Of a stretch of DNA of 55,153 bases, positions 3,124 to 22,930 are shown piece after piece. Each line of letters opens with the position of its first letter. Position 1 is the first letter of the stretch. The notes below the pieces were generated by a model that did not search any database, was not told the origin of the DNA, and saw nothing but the letters and a program-made list of their open reading frames with translations. Both the position numbers and the translations under genes were made by a program. The stretch comes from Patescibacteria group bacterium (GTDB lineage Bacteria; Patescibacteriota; Minisyncoccia; Phycocordibacterales; JAKFXT01), in assembly GCA_021731245.1 (NCBI GenBank), contig JAKFXT010000019.1, positions 1 through 55,153 of the forward strand, written 5' to 3'.

Positions 3124-4119
3124 GTGAGACTAATTGTCATTTTTGCCTTGTTTTTCGTGATTCCCGGCGCAGCTAACGCTGGTTTTTTTTCGCTTATAAC
3201 TGATTTTTTTGAAAAACCAAAAGAAATAATTGAAAGTAGATCAGTCAACACTCAAACGATGGGACTTCTTCAGGCAGCGGTAAGTCCTGACCCAAATCCA
3301 GCTAAGGGTGGGGGTGACATCACAGTTGTTTCGGGTAGTGCCCTACTTTCAGAAGATGGGCCAGAAGGAACTTCTTTAGATGTTGAAGAAAAAACTCAAG
3401 CGGGACACATTAGTTTGTACGTTGTCCGTCAAGGAGACACTCTCTCAACAATTGCTAAGATTTTTGGTGTTACTAAAAACACAATAATGTGGGCCAATGA
3501 AATTCCAGGAGGCGTTATTAAGCCGGGGCAAACCCTCGTCATTTTGCCAATTTCTGGAGTTCAGCACACCGTTGCTAAGGGGGATACTATAAAATCAATT
3601 GCTAAAAAGTATAAAGCAGATGAAGAAGAAGTTTTTCAATATAACAATCTTGAAGAAACCGCAAAGATTGCCGTTGGAGACATTGTAATAGTTCCAGACG
3701 GTGAAATCGCAACAGCGCCTAAAGTAAAAGCCGTTACAAGTACTTGGAAGAAAAGTGTTGGTGGTCCAAAAATCGAAGGATATTATTTGAAGCCACTTCT
3801 TGGTGGCATAAGAACTCAAGGATTGCACGGATATAATGGGGTGGACATAGCGAGTTATTCTGGTGCCCCAATCCTAGCTTCAGCTACAGGGAATGTGATT
3901 ATAAGTAGAACAACAGGATGGAACGCTGGATACGGCCAATATATTGTTATTCAGCATGAAAACGGAACACAGACTCTCTATGGTCACTTAAGTAAAAACT
4001 TAGTTGGTGTTGGAGAGCGTGTAGTACAGGGACAAGTAATTGGTGAAATGGGCAGAACTGGAAAGTCCACCGGAGTACACCTTCACTTTGAAGTTCGCGG
4101 CGCCGCCAATCCGTTCTAG
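3124..4119 (+). CDS. LysM-domain M23 family peptidoglycan endopeptidase
   Basis: Signal peptide, two LysM repeats (YVVRQGDTLSTIA, HTVAKGDTIKSIA), HGYNGVD, YGHL and HLHFE M23 motifs. Confidence 0.92.
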   Translation: MRLIVIFALFFVIPGAANAGFFSLITDFFEKPKEIIESRSVNTQTMGLLQAAVSPDPNPAKGGGDITVVSGSALLSEDGPEGTSLDVEEKTQAGHISLYVVRQGDTLSTIAKIFGVTKNTIMWANEIPGGVIKPGQTLVILPISGVQHTVAKGDTIKSIAKKYKADEEEVFQYNNLEETAKIAVGDIVIVPDGEIATAPKVKAVTSTWKKSVGGPKIEGYYLKPLLGGIRTQGLHGYNGVDIASYSGAPILASATGNVIISRTTGWNAGYGQYIVIQHENGTQTLYGHLSKNLVGVGERVVQGQVIGEMGRTGKSTGVHLHFEVRGAANPF

Positions 4120-12834: not shown

Positions 12835-13629
12835 ATGATTCAATATTTGCTTCATGGGTATTTAAATCCCTCTCCACTTTTTCTAATTCTGTTTTTTATT
12901 ATTACTTCCCTACTCACCCTCCTCGCTGTTTCTTGTTTTTTACACCGTTCACAAACACATCGTTCTGTTACTCTCTCTGCTCCCATAAGTCATATTTTTC
13001 GATTTATTCTTTGGATTTTTACAGGAATGGTAACTAAAGAATGGGTGGCAATTCACAGAAAACATCACGCTTTTTGTGACGTCGAGGGCGATCCTCACTC
13101 ACCCAGATTTTTGGGACTCAAAAAAGTATTTTTTGAAGGAGCGGATATTTATACAAAGGAAGGAAAAAACAATAAACCCTTGCTCGATGAGTATGGAAAA
13201 GGAACGCCGGATGATTGGATGGAGAGAAATGTGTATGGAGGAAACAGAAGATATTTGGGTATTGGAATTGCTTTTGCTATTGAATTATTTTTGTTTGGGC
13301 TTCCAGCCATAATTATTTGGGCCGGACAAATGCTCGTCATTCCTGTGATTGCCGCAGGTTTTATAAATGGAGTGGCGCACGTCATCGGTACACAACGCTA
13401 CAAGGACGGAGATATAAAAGAAAATGGAAAAGTATTTGAAAGAATTGGGGATGCTAGGAATGTGCCAACTTTTGGTTTAGCGGTTGGTGAAGAATTTCAT
13501 AATAATCATCATGCGTATCAAGACAGATTTAAATTTTCACACAAGTGGTGGGAGTTTGATTTGGCGGGAACATTTATAGAAATTTTGTGCTTATTCAAAT
13601 TAGCAGAAGTTCCGAAAAGACAAAAATAA
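12835..13629 (+). CDS. membrane fatty acid (delta-9 type) desaturase
   Basis: Three His boxes (HRSQTH, HRKHH, HNNHH), GDPHSP motif and TM segments. Confidence 0.9.
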   Translation: MIQYLLHGYLNPSPLFLILFFIITSLLTLLAVSCFLHRSQTHRSVTLSAPISHIFRFILWIFTGMVTKEWVAIHRKHHAFCDVEGDPHSPRFLGLKKVFFEGADIYTKEGKNNKPLLDEYGKGTPDDWMERNVYGGNRRYLGIGIAFAIELFLFGLPAIIIWAGQMLVIPVIAAGFINGVAHVIGTQRYKDGDIKENGKVFERIGDARNVPTFGLAVGEEFHNNHHAYQDRFKFSHKWWEFDLAGTFIEILCLFKLAEVPKRQK

Positions 13630-13644
13630 TTATAAAAAAGAAAA

Positions 13645-13666
13645 CGGCGCGTCCCAAGTCGCGCCG
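13645..13666. terminator. hairpin between convergent genes
   Basis: CGGCGCG-N8-CGCGCCG, with an A-run on the left giving a U-tail on the minus strand. Confidence 0.55.
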
Positions 13667-13676
13667 CTGTCGATGA

Positions 13677-14069
13677 TTAGTTCATCACGCTTTTCAATAG
13701 ACACGCCCTCCTTTCTTGGGGATCAAGAACTCGATAAATATACGAACCTGTCTCACAGTTTCTTGCGACGTAAAGCCAAAATCTTGCTGGGTTCCTTTTT
13801 GAATTTTTACGATTTGCCTCCTCGATGATTTCCATTAAAGGCAGAATCGCGAGAGCAACTTTTTGTTCATCAAGGGGACCCATTGCGATTTTTTGGTGGG
13901 GCAAAATACTTAAGCCCCACTCATCTAAATCCTTGATATAGCCATCGTCCCAAACACTTCTGAGCAATCTGCACGTGCTGACGAAGACTTCATCTCCCTC
14001 GGTCAACCACACAGGAAGAGGTGTTCCGTCGTGCGAACTTCTCATGCGAACTGTCATGTCGATGTTCAT
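13677..14069 (-). CDS. hypothetical orphan protein
   Basis: ORF fills the gap; GGGGAGAG SD 5 nt before the ATG at 14069. Confidence 0.65.
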   Translation of the reverse strand: MNIDMTVRMRSSHDGTPLPVWLTEGDEVFVSTCRLLRSVWDDGYIKDLDEWGLSILPHQKIAMGPLDEQKVALAILPLMEIIEEANRKNSKRNPARFWLYVARNCETGSYIYRVLDPQERRACLLKSVMN

Positions 14070-16951: not shown

Positions 16952-17623
16952 ATGAGTGTTTCAATTAAAGAACAATCCATTCTACTCCGAAAAAATGGGG
17001 CTACTTACTCCGAAATTTCTGCCAAACTTAAGGTAAGTCGGGGCCTTCTTTCCAAGTGGTTTGTAGGACTTCCCTTGTCCTCTTCCGAAAAAGAGGGCCT
17101 TTTGAAGCATCAAAAAGAGGTGGTTCTTAGAAGTCGAAGTAAGAGCAAATTGAGTCGCCAAATGAAGAAGGTTTTTGGCGAAAGACAGGCGCTTGTGGGT
17201 GGGCAAAAAAGCTTCAAAAAGTTTCAGGCCGACCCTCGATTTTTGGTCGGACTTTCTATGTATCTTTCTCACGGATCATTCAATAACCCATACCTACAAT
17301 TTAGTTCTGATGATGAGGGGGCGGTCCAAATATTCCTAGATTGGCTCATTCGCTTTCTTGCTGTGCCGGTCTCTTCCATTCGCTGTAGATTGTATATAAA
17401 CAGCAATATCCCCTACTCTGAAGCTCAAAGTGGCTGGATTAGGAAAATAGCTATAAATGATAAGCAGTTTTTGAGCCCGGTAGTGTATAAAACTAGACAG
17501 AAATCCAAAGAAAATGGCTCAAATAAAGGGTTTTTACAGATTACTGTGCCAGGTATCAACAATATACGCACCCTTAGCGTTTGGAAAAACCTTCTTTTTG
17601 AGCTTTATAAGAAAAAAGCTTAA
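16952..17623 (+). CDS. HTH + LAGLIDADG-like protein (paralog 1, acidic motif residue replaced)
   Basis: LRKNGATYSEISAKLKVSRGLLSKW HTH; FLVGLSMYLSHG aligns with the GEG motif of paralogs 2 and 3. Confidence 0.7.
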   Translation: MSVSIKEQSILLRKNGATYSEISAKLKVSRGLLSKWFVGLPLSSSEKEGLLKHQKEVVLRSRSKSKLSRQMKKVFGERQALVGGQKSFKKFQADPRFLVGLSMYLSHGSFNNPYLQFSSDDEGAVQIFLDWLIRFLAVPVSSIRCRLYINSNIPYSEAQSGWIRKIAINDKQFLSPVVYKTRQKSKENGSNKGFLQITVPGINNIRTLSVWKNLLFELYKKKA

Positions 17624-17626
17624 TTG

Positions 17627-17698
17627 TGCCCCCGGCAGGACTCGAACCCACAACAACTGATCCGAAGTCAGTTATGATATCCATTTCACCACGAGGGC
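17627..17698 (-). tRNA. tRNA-Arg(TCG), CCA not encoded
   Basis: Minus strand GCCCTCG...ACTGA-CT-TCG-GA-TCAGT...GGTTCGAGTCC...CGGGGGC-A folds as a cloverleaf. Confidence 0.93.
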
Positions 17699-17762
17699 AA
17701 TTCTTAAATAGTAGCTTTAAATTGGTATTTTGTAAAAATGAACTCCCATTATAGTATTATAA

Positions 17763-18428
17763 ATGTATATGAGAACAGATAAGAAAGAAGCTTTTGAATT
17801 AAGGAAGCAAGGAAAAACCTTCAATGAGATTTCTAAGAGTCTTGGCATTTCTAAGGGCACTCTCTCCTTCTGGTTTAAGGGTATTGATTGGTCAAGGGAA
17901 ATTTCGGAAAAGAACTTTGTTTTCAACTACTCCCCTGAAAATATAAAGAAAATGCACATAGCCAGACGTCATATGCTTGATAAAAAATATTTATTAGCAC
18001 GTCAGGAAGCCCTAAACGAATTTGATAAATATAAGGAAGAAACGCAATTTGTGGCTGGTATTGTAGCCTATTCTGGTGAGGGTGATCATTCTGTAAAAAA
18101 TGGTATGGCGCGCATAGCAAATTCAAATCCAGGAATTATCCTTATTTTTAAACGTTTTTTAGAGAAATACTATTTTGAAATGTATAAAAAAATACGTGTA
18201 AGCATATTACTTTATCCGGATTTAAATGATGAGGAGTGTTTAAAATATTGGTCAGAAACTTTAGGTGTCTCAATCAAACAATTCCATAAACCAGTACATA
18301 TAATAGGAAAACATAAAAAAAGACGATTGCGATATGGAGTTGGAAGCCTTATAATCAGCAATAAGTTTTTTAAAATTAAACTTTTGGAATTAGAAAACTT
18401 GTGCTTACAACATTTAGCGCGGATATAG
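17763..18428 (+). CDS. HTH + LAGLIDADG-like protein (paralog 2)
   Basis: LRKQGKTFNEISKSLGISKGTLSFW HTH; FVAGIVAYSGEGD, ANSNP and YWS..LG motifs; stop codon lies inside tRNA-Gly. Confidence 0.75.
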   Translation: MYMRTDKKEAFELRKQGKTFNEISKSLGISKGTLSFWFKGIDWSREISEKNFVFNYSPENIKKMHIARRHMLDKKYLLARQEALNEFDKYKEETQFVAGIVAYSGEGDHSVKNGMARIANSNPGIILIFKRFLEKYYFEMYKKIRVSILLYPDLNDEECLKYWSETLGVSIKQFHKPVHIIGKHKKRRLRYGVGSLIISNKFFKIKLLELENLCLQHLARI

Positions 18429-18492
18429 TTTAGTGGTAGAACGCATGCTTGCCAAGCATGGGGCGGGGTTTCGATTACCCCTATCCGCACCA
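18419..18492 (+). tRNA. tRNA-Gly(GCC), CCA encoded
   Basis: GCGGATA/TATCCGC acceptor stem, CATGC-TT-GCC-AA-GCATG, TTCGATT T-loop and ACCA end. Confidence 0.94.
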
Positions 18493-18575
18493 AAAGGACA
18501 AGAAATAATAATAGACATTGAGATATGTCAAAAAAAAGTCTAAAAAACTCTTTATTTAAGCCAAATTATGAAAGC

Positions 18576-18584
18576 TGTGGATAA
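18576..18584 (-). promoter_or_regulatory. DnaA box
   Basis: TGTGGATAA is a perfect TTATCCACA on the minus strand, in an AT-rich intergenic region. Confidence 0.45.
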
Positions 18585-18690
18585 AAATGGGGATTGTGTT
18601 TATAAAAGACAATTGTAAAAAAGTAAATTTTTGTGCTAAAAGTCATTAAAGAGCCAAAGTAAGCCATTATTTGACAATTTAAGAGTAAAT

Positions 18691-18730
18691 AGTTTCATAT
18701 GAAACAAACAGATAGTTTTCACGTGAAACA
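18691..18730. promoter_or_regulatory. tandem parS-like sites
   Basis: AGTTTCATATGAAACA (18691-18706) and GTTTTCACGTGAAACA (18715-18730) against consensus TGTTTCACGTGAAACA. Confidence 0.75.
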
Positions 18731-18766
18731 CTCAAAGAAGGTAAGAATATAGCTAAAAAATTACAC

Positions 18767-19162
18767 GTGAAAGAAAAAAGAGTAAAAAAGACAACAGAAA
18801 AGAGGAAAACAGGGGATTTGGGTGAGTCTATTGCCATTAAGTATTTAGAAGGGAAAGGTTATAAAGTTTTAAAGCAGAACTATCTTAAGCCTTGGGGTGA
18901 GATAGATATTGTAGCTAGGAAGGGAAGCAAGCTCTACTTTATTGAGGTTAAAACCGTTACACATGAAACAAATGGCTCAAATACGTATAGAGCAGAGGAT
19001 AATATTCACCCCTTTAAGCTAAAGCGCCTTGAAAGGACCATAAACTCTTACTTATTAGAGAAAGGAGAAGGTGAGAGCGATTGGCAAATGGACTTGGTAG
19101 TAGTGGCACTAGATAAAGAGAGTAAAAAGGCCAAAGTGAAGTATATAGAGGGAATATTCTAA
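18767..19162 (+). CDS. yraN: YraN (UPF0102) family PD-(D/E)xK nuclease
   Basis: GDLGESIA..YL, GEIDIVA and FIEVKT. Confidence 0.9.
   Translation: MKEKRVKKTTEKRKTGDLGESIAIKYLEGKGYKVLKQNYLKPWGEIDIVARKGSKLYFIEVKTVTHETNGSNTYRAEDNIHPFKLKRLERTINSYLLEKGEGESDWQMDLVVVALDKESKKAKVKYIEGIF
18955..18970. promoter_or_regulatory. parS-like site inside yraN
   Basis: CGTTACACATGAAACA, encoding V-T-H-E-T. Confidence 0.5.
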
Positions 19163-19238
19163 AGGACACTATCGTTTAGTGTTTGTCCTATATTTTGGGA
19201 TATTCAATTTACTCCCAAAAATGCTATAATGTAACTCA

Positions 19239-19634
19239 ATGGAAGCTACTAAGAAATGTCTTTACTGTAATAAATTTTATGCCCCAGATCGTTTTGGTGT
19301 GGCGCTGACCACTTCCCAAAAAGTTTATCGTCGCCAAAAATGTTCGAATTGTTATAGGGAGACAAAACAGAAACTGATACAAAAACATCTTTCTTGGATT
19401 AATGATTATAAAAAGGAGAAAGGATGTACTAGATGTGGTAATATTGACCCGCGAGTCCTTGATTTTCACCATAGGAATGGTAAAGATAAGCTGTTTGGCT
19501 TAGGAACTTTTCGCAGAGCTGTTGGCTTTGAAAGAATAAAAAAGGAAGTTGAAAAGTGTGAAATTGTTTGTGCAAATTGCCACAGAATTTTACATTACGA
19601 AATGAGGCAAGAAAATACAAAAAACGGGGCGTAG
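19239..19634 (+). CDS. HNH endonuclease-like zinc-binding protein
   Basis: CxxC pairs, CTRCG..DPRVLDFHH and CEIVCANCHRILH; stop codon lies inside tRNA-Pro. Confidence 0.85.
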   Translation: MEATKKCLYCNKFYAPDRFGVALTTSQKVYRRQKCSNCYRETKQKLIQKHLSWINDYKKEKGCTRCGNIDPRVLDFHHRNGKDKLFGLGTFRRAVGFERIKKEVEKCEIVCANCHRILHYEMRQENTKNGA

Positions 19635-19695
19635 TATACCGGCAGTACGCTTGTTTTGGGAACAAGTAGACTGGGTTCGATTCCCAGCGCCCCGA
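19625..19695 (+). tRNA. tRNA-Pro(TGG), CCA not encoded
   Basis: CGGGGCG/CGCCCCG acceptor stem, CTTGT-TT-TGG-GA-ACAAG and CTGGG-TTCGATT-CCCAG. Confidence 0.93.
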
Positions 19696-19700
19696 CAATT

Positions 19701-20393
19701 ATGAAATTAAGAAAGATTAGAGGAGGTAATATAGAAGACCTTCAATCTAAAAAATACAATATAGGAGTTGGTATTAGTTTGGGTAACAGATGGTTTACTC
19801 CTTCTAATATCGTAGAAGAGGTAAGGTGGGCTTTGCAGTATACAAAAAAATACGTTGTTATATATGTTGCTGATTCCATACACGCAATTAATTTGGAAGT
19901 CAGAAATAAAATCTCTAAAGAAAAGGCCCTGCGTTCAGCAAATAGGGCTGGAGATAAAATTTTAAAGGAAGTGAAACTTGAAATAGAGAAAAATTTTGAG
20001 TCAATAGATTTCATCAAAATACAATACGCAAAATGGGATGATCTCATTGATGATGATTACAGGAAAAAATTGGCATACCTTTATTCCTTCTATGGTAAAA
20101 ATGATAAATTTAAATTTAACATCCACAATCTTGTAAAAAGCCATCTTTCAAAAGAAGGAGATAGATTTTCTGAAGAAGATATTCATAAATTAGGAACATA
20201 TATTATTGAAGAAATGCCAGAAGTTATGTGTAGAGTTGGTATAAAAGGCAACGTATACGAAGCATACACGTACCCTTTTGATGGAGAGTTGCCAAAGTTT
20301 GTAGAGGATATTCAGAAAGGAATAATTTTCCCTGAAATAAAAGAAAGCATAATGAATACAGAGCCGAAAGTGTTCCTTGAAGTTAACCTGTAA
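19701..20393 (+). CDS. tRNA-dependent cyclodipeptide synthase (CDPS, AlbC-like)
   Basis: GISLGNRWF matches AlbC-type GISxGNxYF with catalytic Ser; YIIEEMP matches YxxxExP; YTYP; 230 aa. Confidence 0.8.
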   Translation: MKLRKIRGGNIEDLQSKKYNIGVGISLGNRWFTPSNIVEEVRWALQYTKKYVVIYVADSIHAINLEVRNKISKEKALRSANRAGDKILKEVKLEIEKNFESIDFIKIQYAKWDDLIDDDYRKKLAYLYSFYGKNDKFKFNIHNLVKSHLSKEGDRFSEEDIHKLGTYIIEEMPEVMCRVGIKGNVYEAYTYPFDGELPKFVEDIQKGIIFPEIKESIMNTEPKVFLEVNL

Positions 20394-22029: not shown

Positions 22030-22035
22030 GTGCAT

Positions 22036-22698
22036 ATGAAATTGGCTTTAAGAAAAAAAGCTGAGGGACTACGCTTAGGAGGATATTCTTATACTTATAT
22101 ATCTAAAAAATTAAATGTATCAAAAGGCACTTTAAGTCAGTGGCTTTCTCTTGTTCCTTATACTCCAAATAAAGAAACCATAGCCGTTATAGGGAAAGCC
22201 AGAGTGGCTTCTGGGTTGGTAAAACATAAGTTAAAACTTAAATCTATAGCTGATGCTAAAACAGAAGCTGAAAAAGAAATAGGGAATCTTTCCGAAAGAG
22301 ATATTTTTATGTTGGGTTTAGGTATCTATATTGGTGAAGGAGCGAAAACCCACAGCATTATACGCCTTATTAATTCAAATCCTGATATAATCAAATTCGC
22401 AGTAAAATGGTTTAAGGAATCTTGCGGTTTAAGTATAAGCAATATTAGGATTAGGTTGCATCTTTATCCTGATAATAACGAAAGTAAATGCATTGATTTT
22501 TGGTCTAAAGTCACAGGCATTCCTAGAAACAATTTTCATAAAACCTATATTGATAGGAGGGTAAATAAAAAACTTGCGAAAAGAGGTAAATTGCCTTATG
22601 GTACTGCACATATTGGCATTAAAAGTTTGGGGCAAAAGAAATTTGGGGTTTTTCTTTCAAGAAAGATTAATGCCTGGATTGATAGGGCTTTGAAATAA
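22036..22698 (+). CDS. HTH + LAGLIDADG-like protein (paralog 3)
   Basis: LRLGGYSYTYISKKLNVSKGTLSQW HTH; FMLGLGIYIGEGAK, INSNP, FWS..TG and LPYG; ends 11 nt before tRNA-Gly(TCC). Confidence 0.75.
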   Translation: MKLALRKKAEGLRLGGYSYTYISKKLNVSKGTLSQWLSLVPYTPNKETIAVIGKARVASGLVKHKLKLKSIADAKTEAEKEIGNLSERDIFMLGLGIYIGEGAKTHSIIRLINSNPDIIKFAVKWFKESCGLSISNIRIRLHLYPDNNESKCIDFWSKVTGIPRNNFHKTYIDRRVNKKLAKRGKLPYGTAHIGIKSLGQKKFGVFLSRKINAWIDRALK

Positions 22699-22709
22699 AA
22701 CACATAATT

Positions 22710-22783
22710 GCGGGATTAGTTTAATGGTAAAATGGGAGTTTTCCAAACTCTTGATGGGAGTTCGATTCTCCCATCCCGCACCA
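22710..22783 (+). tRNA. tRNA-Gly(TCC), CCA encoded
   Basis: GCGGGAT/ATCCCGC, GGAGT-TT-TCC-AA-ACTCT, GGGAG-TTCGATT-CTCCC and ACCA. Confidence 0.95.
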
Positions 22784-22832: not shown

Positions 22833-22930
22833 TGTAGGATGGGAGAATCGAAAGCCGGAGCACGACAGGTGCGAGGCGGGGTCGCGGAAATTTTTAGTAA
22901 AAAATTATCTGTGACCGATTCTCCTACTTA
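22833..22930. repeat. structured element beginning with an inverted copy of the tRNA 3' arm
   Basis: GGATGGGAGAATCGAA is the exact reverse complement of tRNA TTCGATTCTCCCATCC; internal hairpins closed by GATTCTCC. Confidence 0.5.

Follow-up and report, generated by a model that had tools for sequence, protein, structure and literature searches.

Protein-coding genes at the 5' ends of tRNA genes, and stop codons shared with the tRNA, in a Patescibacteria group bacterium and its class

Coding sequences and endonuclease genes at tRNA genes

In bacteria, tRNA genes can contain group I introns that encode HNH homing endonucleases. One of the two open reading frames (ORFs) at the centre of this analysis is homologous to ORFs of such introns in the same class, but it lies outside any intron, before a tRNA gene, and ends inside that gene. 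A free-standing endonuclease gene among tRNA genes is known from phage T4, where the GIY-YIG homing endonuclease SegB is encoded in the tRNA gene cluster, as was shown by experiment (PMC2330249). According to its abstract, SegB recognizes a T-psi-C stem-loop motif of the tRNA gene, and its homing drags neighbouring tRNA genes along; a shared stop codon is not mentioned there (PMC2330249). SegB is a phage enzyme, whereas the genes described here are chromosomal, belong to ultra-small bacteria, stand precisely at the 5' edge of single essential tRNA genes, and are predicted from sequence.

Same-strand coding sequences that run into a tRNA gene were described by Hudson, Lau and Williams (2014, PMC4131195). 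In their account of overlaps between coding sequences and t(m)RNA genes, RNA maturation is predicted to remove the stop codon and leave a non-stop mRNA, which is a substrate of tmRNA-SmpB. This is exactly the mechanism that the initial annotation of the present locus had put forward; the conversion of an mRNA into a non-stop mRNA by tRNA maturation is already proposed in print. Their census counted 250 same-orientation overlaps of the 'CDS upstream' type among 115,660 t(m)RNA genes; such overlaps are rare and clade-restricted, and no endonuclease family is found among the top entries listed (PMC4131195). In comparison with that census, 5 of 37 tRNA genes are overlapped in the single genome studied here, and all of the ORFs belong to mobile-type families. 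A literature search, with supplementary gene lists outside its scope, found no paper on endonuclease genes located at the 5' ends of tRNA genes in Patescibacteria or CPR.

Layout of the window and its recurrence in the class

The window is the whole analysed stretch of 55,153 nucleotides. Its features around the tRNA genes are as follows.

16952 to 17623, + strand: 223-amino-acid HTH-family paralogue, ending 2 nt from tRNA-Arg(UCG)
17626 to 17698, - strand: tRNA-Arg(UCG), inverted in place; in the four relatives compared, the 5' side of the tRNA faces the paralogue, which runs into it
17763 to 18428, + strand: 221-amino-acid ORF of a family with an HTH and an alpha/beta domain with the motif LYWGEG; its last 10 nt are positions 1-10 of tRNA-Gly
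18419 to 18492, + strand: tRNA-Gly(GCC), found by ARAGORN and Rfam; U8-A9-G10 at 18426-18428 is the stop codon of the 221-amino-acid ORF
19239 to 19634, + strand: 131-amino-acid HNH-type ORF (motif DFHH...CANCH); its last 10 nt are positions 1-10 of tRNA-Pro
19625 to 19696, + strand: tRNA-Pro(UGG), found by ARAGORN and Rfam; U8-A9-G10 at 19632-19634 is the stop codon of the HNH ORF
22030 to 22698, + strand: third HTH-family paralogue, with its own stop codon 14 nt before tRNA-Gly(UCC)
22710 to 22783, + strand: tRNA-Gly(UCC) behind the third HTH paralogue, found by ARAGORN and Rfam

All four window tRNAs were confirmed by the Rfam tRNA model. The initial annotation had claimed that two unrelated ORFs stop on the TAG of tRNA positions 8-10, and the coordinates of the ORFs and of the ARAGORN and Rfam tRNAs agree on this. 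The 221-amino-acid ORF ends GCG CGG ATA TAG, with TAG at tRNA-Gly positions 8-10, and the HNH ORF ends AAC GGG GCG TAG, with TAG at tRNA-Pro positions 8-10. At both window junctions, a same-strand coding sequence lies upstream of a valid tRNA gene and stops inside the mature tRNA. A blastp comparison of the 221- and 131-amino-acid proteins found no similarity; thus, the same 10-nt overlap is present in two non-homologous genes.

The overlap is more frequent than chance would give. In the whole 0.69-Mb genome, TAG8-10 is the stop codon of an upstream same-strand ORF of at least 98 amino acids at 5 of 37 tRNA genes, while in the other two frames no upstream ORF ends inside any of the 37. Three further tRNA genes have a related ORF with its own stop codon 4-14 nt upstream, and an ORF is joined to the 5' end of eight tRNA genes altogether. 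The initial observation is therefore correct, and its extent was understated. In ultra-small bacteria of the Patescibacteria type, a sizeable share of the essential single-copy tRNA genes (8 of 37 here) carries a putatively selfish gene at the 5' end.

Across the class, the HTH, HNH and GIY-YIG families are all associated with the 5' ends of tRNA genes. Among 155 ORFs examined (96 of the HTH family, 29 HNH and 30 GIY-YIG), 108 abut a same-strand tRNA gene, namely 78 HTH, 9 HNH and 21 GIY-YIG. The layout is found in three unrelated families and at no fewer than 12 tRNA isoacceptors. The stop codon lies inside the tRNA in 46 of the 108 abutting ORFs, at position 8 in 32 of them, at position 13 in nine, at position 20 in two, and once each at positions 21, 36 and -2. 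The other 62 have their own stop codon 4-35 nt upstream of the tRNA.

Protein families and their probable mobility

The initial annotation described both window ORFs as nucleases; the HNH ORF is a putative one, and for the 221-amino-acid ORF the description goes too far. The HNH ORF has the HNH motif and homologues (E 1e-11 to 1e-15) within group I introns that interrupt the anticodon loops of tRNA-Thr, Asn, His and Asp genes in the same class. Nineteen of 29 HNH homologues terminate 362-455 nt into tRNA genes, in which ARAGORN finds introns of about 500-577 nt, and two of three HNH-bearing introns tested score above the cut-off of Rfam Intron_gpI. The 221-amino-acid ORF combines an HTH at the N-terminus with a C-terminal alpha/beta domain for which there is no convincing structural match. 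When two AlphaFold models of the HTH family were compared with the PDB by Foldseek, no endonuclease fold was among the matches listed (best TM below 0.45). The ESM Atlas returned only unnamed clusters for this family, and a search of a large protein database returned only matches named 'hypothetical protein'.

A LAGLIDADG identity of the HTH family was considered and rejected. The family resembles LAGLIDADG enzymes such as I-DmoI in a weak profile match to the motif region of I-DmoI (PDB 5ak9, E 0.0075) and in its LYWGEG motif at a helix end. However, Pfam LAGLIDADG_3 (PF14528) is touched by only 1 of 34 members (E 0.006), and Foldseek lists no LAGLIDADG structure; the alpha-beta-beta-alpha-beta-beta-alpha fold of these enzymes is not matched by the HTH-family models among the matches listed. 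The HTH family is widespread and unnamed, and it is a putative nuclease at most. The GIY-YIG family is represented elsewhere in the genome by an ORF on C8 (PF01541, 54.8 bits).

The ORFs could also be an annotation artefact, that is, decaying remnants or chance frames that stay open to the first stop codon. Pfam finds an above-threshold nuclease domain in neither window ORF, which would fit this explanation. Nevertheless, intact homologues of the HTH ORF are present in 131 of 301 class genomes and those of the HNH ORF in 44 of 301, the two AlphaFold models have high confidence (pLDDT 93.9 and 95.8), and residues are conserved, including the LYWGEG motif of the HTH family. Such conservation contradicts an artefact, which is therefore hardly credible. 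For annotation, the layout means that ORFs of this kind are clipped or dropped by gene callers.

The ORFs appear and vanish between close relatives. G000 is the genome that carries the HNH ORF of the window at tRNA-Pro, and G303 is its closest kin. Seven genomes have the tRNA-Pro site, and the HNH ORF is present in G000 alone and absent in all six relatives. HTH ORFs are present at tRNA-Gly(GCC) in 3 of 8 genomes, at tRNA-Gly(UCC) in 2 of 6 and at tRNA-Arg(UCG) in 5 of 7. Since all three families are tied to tRNA genes and patchy in their presence, and the HNH type also occurs in group I introns, they resemble homing-endonuclease genes that have settled in the leader of a tRNA.

The tRNA alleles linked to ORFs disagree with genome kinship in two of three contrasts, namely tRNA-Gly(GCC) in G000 and tRNA-Gly(UCC) in G304. 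The tRNA-Gly(GCC) of G000 is 0.89 identical to that of ORF-bearing G301 and 0.73 identical to that of its nearest kin G303. Between G304 and G301, tRNA-Pro is identical, whereas tRNA-Gly(UCC) reaches an identity of only 0.69. The third contrast is tRNA-Pro of G000, with an identity of 0.96 to that of ORF-free G303. At most GIY-YIG loci, a copy of the first 9-22 nt of the tRNA is located upstream of the ORF. No remnant of a tRNA 5' end was found upstream of the two window ORFs. Three remnant scores of 10 or more were obtained at HTH and HNH loci; L105 was read as a remnant, and L088 and L114 are probably second tRNAs. For the upstream insertion borders, intergenic sequences from sites with the ORF (G000) and without it (G303) could not be aligned by eye.

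A far-reaching explanation is that each ORF moves together with its tRNA as a single cassette and overwrites resident tRNA alleles. The ORF would be expressed only as the 5' leader of the tRNA, and RNase P together with tmRNA tagging would automatically cap the dose of a selfish nuclease. If true, expression would limit itself by design, and this design would have evolved convergently in three endonuclease families of ultra-small bacteria, but it is quite improbable. The reading we prefer, and consider probable, is that selfish genes of the homing-endonuclease type fill tRNA 5' leaders and that the shared stop codon is a by-product of packing without a spacer. It builds on the observed layout, recurrence, patchy presence, lability and frame statistics. 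Three unrelated families (HTH, HNH and GIY-YIG) would occupy the space directly before tRNA genes, both in this Paceibacteria-type genome and in the class to which it belongs. Their mobility would come from homing with co-conversion of the tRNA. By attaching themselves to indispensable genes, selfish genes may survive in minimal genomes.

Transcription, RNA processing and choice of stop codon

In the preferred reading, each gene would fill the 5' leader of its tRNA. A -10-like box would stand shortly before the start codon of the gene, and the coding sequence would meet the tRNA without a spacer. Promoter-like elements of the window are as follows.

17740 to 17746, + strand: sequence GAACTCC, resembling the upstream GAACC box of the HTH family
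17750 to 17755, + strand: -10-like TATAGT, 7 nt before the ATG at 17763, a leaderless-type start
18327 to 18355, + strand: candidate tRNA promoter inside the 221-amino-acid ORF, TTGCGA-17-TATAAT (10/12), 64 nt before tRNA-Gly +1
19222 to 19230, + strand: extended -10-like TGcTATAAT, 8 nt before the ATG at 19239
19589 to 19616, + strand: candidate tRNA promoter inside the HNH ORF, TTTACA-16-GAAAAT (9/12), ending 9 nt before tRNA-Pro +1

Of 91 HTH-family ORFs, 85 have a -10-like hexamer in the 70 nt before the ORF. The ORF-linked tRNAs may own promoters as well, as the two candidate sites inside the window ORFs suggest. It is conceivable, though unlikely, that the overlap exists at the DNA level only. 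In that case, the tRNAs would be transcribed mainly from their own promoters in the last ORF codons, the ORF would rarely be transcribed from its own promoter, and the two would be independent neighbours. The candidates at 18327-18355 and 19589-19616 fit this explanation, as do the -10-like hexamers in the last 70 nt of 51 of 78 HTH ORFs, compared with 27-35 of 78 interior windows. However, promoter-like sites in the window region are not in excess over shuffled sequence (14 versus 11.8 +/- 3.4), the enrichment in ORF 3' ends among homologues is only weak and its position is not conserved, and a strict -10-like hexamer within 70 nt is missing at 5 of the 8 ORF-linked tRNAs of this genome. Moreover, ORF transcripts that read through would end in the tRNA despite an internal promoter. 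The initial annotation had treated tRNA promoters inside the ORFs as an argument against its leader idea. Candidate sites are present in both ORFs, but such promoters would leave the ORF mRNA exposed to RNase P and hence are not decisive.

The part of the initial annotation that described the ORF as a pre-tRNA leader is supported by the layout. A terminator scan gave a single match on the + strand, which lies inside a tRNA; none was found between ORF and tRNA, where the layout leaves no room. Because the ORF fills the front of the tRNA without a spacer or terminator, any full-length ORF transcript would have to run into the tRNA and become an RNase P substrate. The genome has a full-length RNase P RNA at C11:19476-19838 (85.8 bits, under the Rfam cut-off of 100), and it also encodes SmpB (165.8 bits) and tmRNA (102.6 bits). 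The formation of a non-stop mRNA through RNase P cleavage is a plausible consequence. A search of sequencing runs for this stretch listed four DNA runs, all from one study, and no RNA run. ORF and tRNA would be co-transcribed, and mRNAs processed by RNase P would lose their stop codon as a side effect. Such genes offer a natural setting in which to test the published proposal that maturation of a tRNA can turn an mRNA into a non-stop mRNA.

ORFs with their own stop codon are evenly distributed over the three frames (24, 18 and 20). The frames of all 108 abutting ORFs pooled are uneven (53, 33 and 22), with 53 in register with TAG8-10. The TAG8-10 frame holds 35 of the 46 ORFs that stop inside a tRNA (binomial p about 4e-9, uncorrected for kinship). 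Where TAG8-10 is in frame, the tRNA stop codon is used in 33 of 44 cases; this falls to 9 of 18 where the first stop is at position 13 and to 0 of 7 where it is at position 19, and the third frame gives 2 of 22. This falling use of deeper stop codons fits the neutral alternative that the initial annotation had also named, in which ORFs lose their own stop codon and read on to the first in-frame TAG. A gene without its own stop codon would be translated to the first in-frame stop codon of the tRNA, and in one frame that stop codon would be U8-A9-G10, which is nearly universal. The 10-nt overlap shared by two unrelated genes is then a by-product, because it would arise from packing without a spacer against a conserved RNA gene. 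The uneven pooled frames can be explained by a survivorship sieve, and selection for the TAG8-10 register can explain them too.

An adaptive explanation takes up the model of the initial annotation. RNase P would cut at tRNA +1 and remove the stop codon, tmRNA-SmpB would rescue the ribosome and add a degradation tag, and selection would keep the stop codon in the tRNA and so cap the dose of a toxic nuclease. Zero spacing would place the tRNA on every full-length ORF transcript, all three processing components are encoded, the TAG8-10 register is over-represented, the layout originated repeatedly, and the same consequence was proposed for overlaps of coding sequences and t(m)RNA genes (PMC4131195). 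Even so, the adaptive explanation is highly doubtful, since 62 of the 108 abutting homologues retain their own stop codon. At least 20 changes between 'stop in tRNA' and 'own stop' are required over 85 tree tips, and shuffled labels require 20-29 (10 shuffles printed), so the state is nearly as scattered as chance would place it. The idea of a selected dosage device is thus not upheld, and the shared stop codon itself is probably no regulatory invention. Within one genus, the ORF linked to tRNA-Gly(GCC) stops at position 8 in G000 and at position 13 in G301 and G304, and the ORFs most closely related to the HNH ORF, which lie at the same tRNA-Pro, carry stop codons of their own 22-25 nt upstream.

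Overlapping genes and their families

Two ORFs of the window end inside a downstream tRNA gene, on the TAG formed by tRNA U8-A9-G10 (TAG8-10).

17763-18428, + strand: 221-aa ORF, ending GCG CGG ATA TAG
18419-18492, + strand: tRNA-Gly(GCC), called by ARAGORN
19239-19634, + strand: 131-aa HNH-type ORF, ending AAC GGG GCG TAG
start at 19625, + strand: tRNA-Pro(UGG)

The TAG at 18426-18428 corresponds to positions 8-10 of tRNA-Gly(GCC), and the TAG at 19632-19634 to positions 8-10 of tRNA-Pro(UGG). The ORF ends and the ARAGORN tRNA borders bear out both overlaps as first described, and all four window tRNAs are supported by the Rfam tRNA model. The two genes had also been called non-homologous, and no similarity was detectable between their proteins.

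The initial annotation regarded both ORFs as nucleases, which is supported for the 131-aa ORF and only putative for the 221-aa ORF. The 131-aa ORF gave nothing above cut-off against Pfam; its HNH signature (DFHH...CANCH) is visible, and its homologues settle its nature at the sequence level. In 30 loci, 29 homologous ORFs were found, of which 19 end 362-455 nt within tRNA genes (mostly Thr and Asn, also His and Asp) that carry introns of approximately 500-577 nt according to ARAGORN. The Rfam group I intron model matched two of three tested HNH-bearing introns. A further 9 of the 29 homologues abut a tRNA 5' end.

The 221-aa ORF belongs to an unnamed helix-turn-helix (HTH) family, whose database homologues are all labelled 'hypothetical protein'. 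Pfam HTH_23 was matched by 26 of 34 members and the Sleeping Beauty HTH by 12 of 34, and an 'LYWGEG' motif is conserved in the C-terminal domain. The family profile weakly matched the I-DmoI motif region (E 0.0075). Two AlphaFold models (pLDDT 93.9 and 95.8) were searched with Foldseek; the matches listed hold no LAGLIDADG or other endonuclease structure, and the best TM was below 0.45. The family was therefore not filed as LAGLIDADG, and any nuclease activity is putative. HTH-family genes also lie 9-35 nt 5' of tRNA-Phe, Asn and Thr genes with ORF-less anticodon-loop introns of 185-269 nt (fetched loci L020, L022, L030, L075, L081, L082, L096, L099 and L100); the two such introns tested both gave a match to Rfam Intron_gpI.

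Distribution at tRNA 5' borders

The genome that includes the window as contig C5 (694,538 bp, 22 contigs, approximately 38% G+C) has 37 tRNA genes, and all three incoming reading frames were read for each. In five of the 37, including the two window cases, a same-strand ORF of 98-221 aa lying upstream ends at TAG8-10. The other three are as follows.

Contig C8, tRNA-Thr(CGU): preceded by a 152-aa HNH-like ORF ending at TAG8-10
Contig C8, tRNA-Asp(GUC): preceded by a 98-aa GIY-YIG ORF (Pfam PF01541, 54.8 bits) ending at TAG8-10
Contig C11, tRNA-Arg(CCU): preceded by a 210-aa paralogue of the 221-aa ORF, ending at TAG8-10

In the other two frames, no ORF of at least 60 aa with an upstream body ends inside any of the 37 tRNAs. 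A paralogous ORF stops shortly 5' of three further tRNAs.

Window 22030-22698: stop 14 nt 5' of tRNA-Gly(UCC)
Contig C4, 5387-5722: stop 7 nt 5' of tRNA-Arg(UCU)
Contig C1, 12887-13144: stop 4 nt 5' of tRNA-Ala(UGC)

With five overlapping and three near-abutting cases, 8 of the 37 tRNAs therefore have a gene of this kind at the 5' border. Across 2031 bacterial genomes with 115,660 t(m)RNA genes, Hudson, Lau and Williams reported 250 same-orientation 'CDS upstream' overlaps (PMC4131195).

Among 301 genomes of the class, 131 have the HTH family, 44 the HNH family and 229 a third, unrelated family of small GIY-YIG proteins. Loci around best-scoring matches, which are not a random sample, provided 155 ORFs (96 HTH, 29 HNH and 30 GIY-YIG). 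An ORF was counted as abutting when the first base of its stop lay between -35 and +40 of a same-strand tRNA, and 108 of the 155 did so (78 HTH, 9 HNH and 21 GIY-YIG). The remaining 47 comprise 19 intron-borne HNH ORFs, 7 HTH ORFs immediately downstream of a tRNA, 11 ORFs situated 36-523 nt upstream of one, 3 GIY-YIG ORFs with a stop more than 350 nt beyond the tRNA start, 5 whose nearest tRNA is on the opposite strand, and 2 in loci without a tRNA. The observation is thus confirmed and extended from two window overlaps to a recurrent pattern in the genome and class. A literature search returned no description of chromosomal endonuclease-type genes systematically placed at tRNA 5' borders in Patescibacteria or CPR. 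A known parallel is T4 SegB, a free-standing endonuclease gene in a tRNA cluster that targets tRNA-gene sequence (PMC2330249).

Origin of the shared stop codon

The stop lies within the tRNA in 46 of the 108 abutting ORFs, at position 8 in 32, 13 in 9, 20 in 2, and 21 and 36 in one each; in the last, only the G of the TAG belongs to the tRNA, as its base 1. The remaining 62 ORFs end on a stop of their own, 4-35 nt 5' of the tRNA, and are divided evenly among the frames (24, 18 and 20). Use of a tRNA-internal stop declines with depth in the tRNA. Where TAG8-10 is present and in frame, 33 of 44 ORFs use it, compared with 9 of 18 ORFs whose first in-frame stop is at position 13, none of 7 at position 19, and 2 of 22 ORFs in the third frame. 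U8-A9-G10, which reads TAG in 77 of the 108 abutted tRNAs, is simply the closest stop and the one most widely available.

Selection for stopping at TAG8-10 would also leave a bias in frame. When pooled, the ORFs fall unevenly into the frames (53, 33 and 22), and the TAG8-10 frame holds 35 of the 46 internal stops (binomial p ~4e-9, Fisher p ~2e-6, neither corrected for kinship). However, a survivorship sieve, in which a gene that loses its stop persists only with a near backup stop, predicts the same skew, and the frame data are therefore compatible with both the selected and the neutral reading.

A FastTree phylogeny of 103 HTH-family proteins with trimmed tails had 85 tips labelled 'stop in tRNA' or 'own stop'. 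The stop state changes at least 20 times over these tips, compared with 20-29 times in the 10 shuffled-label runs printed, which is close to random scatter. Within one genus, the gene linked to tRNA-Gly(GCC) stops at position 8 in the window genome and at position 13 in relatives G301 and G304. The closest relatives of the window HNH ORF share 51-54% identity with it and likewise sit at tRNA-Pro; they end on stops of their own, 22 and 25 nt ahead of the tRNA. The own-stop majority, the depth gradient, the tree scatter and the within-genus variation favour a by-product, and the shared stop most likely results from mobile genes being packed against tRNA genes with zero spacer.

Predicted transcript fate and probable gene mobility

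A -10-like box lies a few bases 5' of the start codon of each of the two window ORFs.

17750-17755, + strand: TATAGT, 5' of the 221-aa ORF
19222-19230, + strand: TGcTATAAT, 5' of the HNH ORF

Such a hexamer occurs within 70 nt upstream of 85 of 91 HTH-family genes. A recurring layout was seen in these 70 nt (L001-L108; window 17740-17760), with GAAC(C) followed after 4-16 nt by a (TGn)TATAAT-like box. GAAC precedes the box at 44 of 91 loci, and a perfect inverted repeat of at least 7 bp is present at 35 of 91. The repeat often encloses the layout; its arms vary between loci yet stay complementary, and the right arm, GGTTC, is just before the ATG.

The tRNAs may have separate promoters of their own, since promoter-like sites occur near the 3' ends of both ORFs (18327-18355 in the 221-aa ORF and 19589-19616 in the HNH ORF), and -10-like hexamers show a moderate enrichment over the final 70 nt of HTH-family ORFs (51 of 78, versus 27-35 of 78 in interior windows). 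However, the promoter-like count of the region does not exceed that of shuffles, and the hexamer position is not fixed among these ORFs. Such promoters would not rescue the ORF mRNA from RNase P. With no spacer and no terminator, full-length ORF transcripts end in the tRNA and should therefore be cut, at predicted sites inside codon 219 of the 221-aa ORF and codon 129 of the HNH ORF. The genome encodes RNase P RNA, SmpB and tmRNA, and thus non-stop mRNA and tagging are a reasonable and plausible predicted side effect. The initial annotation had proposed that tRNA maturation strips the stop, which would limit a toxic nuclease or couple its level to tRNA processing. This interpretation is partly supported: the ORF is probably the tRNA's leader, and the shared stop more likely reflects packing than a dosage role. 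The mechanism is already in print as a prediction, CDS-t(m)RNA overlaps having been proposed to yield non-stop mRNA with tagging (PMC4131195).

Eight genomes of the family share the order CCA-adding enzyme, [HTH gene] tRNA-Arg, [HTH gene] tRNA-Gly(GCC), YraN, [HNH] tRNA-Pro, variable genes, protease, [HTH gene] tRNA-Gly(UCC), in which the bracketed genes are patchy. The HNH gene is present in only the window genome among 7 with the tRNA-Pro site; the HTH gene is found at Gly(GCC) in 3 of 8 genomes, Gly(UCC) in 2 of 6 and Arg(UCG) in 5 of 7. Gene-linked tRNA alleles are discordant with genome kinship in two of three contrasts. First, tRNA-Pro is the same in G301 and G304, but tRNA-Gly(UCC) identity between them is just 0.69; G304 carries the gene, and the G301 allele equals that of G303. 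Second, the window tRNA-Gly(GCC) most resembles the allele of G301, which bears the gene (0.89, versus 0.73 to closest kin G303); its 5' half is like G301 and its T-arm like G302. In contrast, the window tRNA-Pro and the tRNA-Pro of G303, which lacks the gene, are 0.96 identical. In these few cases, the pattern resembles homing in which the tRNA was co-converted in part or in full.

In GIY-YIG cassettes, the first 9-22 nt of the tRNA are duplicated 5' of the ORF, and a conserved CCCGCCCGAACG-like sequence comes after this copy. The copy was found in the C8 case (13526-13943, - strand) and, on inspection, in about ten of the 21 GIY-YIG loci that abut a tRNA; L140, L141, L144-L146, L150, L153 and L161 show it. 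It therefore points to insertion of the cassette into the D-arm region, which would supply a substitute tRNA 5' end. No tRNA 5'-end remnant was found upstream of the two window genes. ORF-less mini versions of this element precede tRNA-Val(GAC) (c730-804) and tRNA-Glu(UUC) (3158-3229) on C11, where the first 9-12 nt of the tRNA are duplicated ahead of a CCCGCCCG...CGGGCGGG hairpin and the intact tRNA follows approximately 25-35 nt on.

Three further features were seen in the window. A stretch of 80-100 nt 3' of tRNA-Gly(UCC) (~22840-22925) is repeated, according to BLAST, on contigs C1, C3, C6 and C11 and in relatives, and its copies mostly adjoin tRNA genes. tRNA-Arg(UCG) (17626-17698, - strand) is inverted exactly in place relative to relatives. 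In G303, G301, G302 and G306 it shares the strand of the HTH-family gene and follows the gene stop by 3-22 nt; in the window the slot reads as the reverse complement and 2 nt separate the gene stop from the tRNA 3' end, and G307 has the inversion without the gene. The ORF immediately 3' of tRNA-Pro (19704-20390, + strand) matches tRNA-dependent cyclodipeptide synthase (NCBIfam TIGR04539, 47.7 bits, cut-off 45; Pfam CDPS, 27.9 bits, cut-off 27), and its slot holds unrelated genes in the relatives examined.
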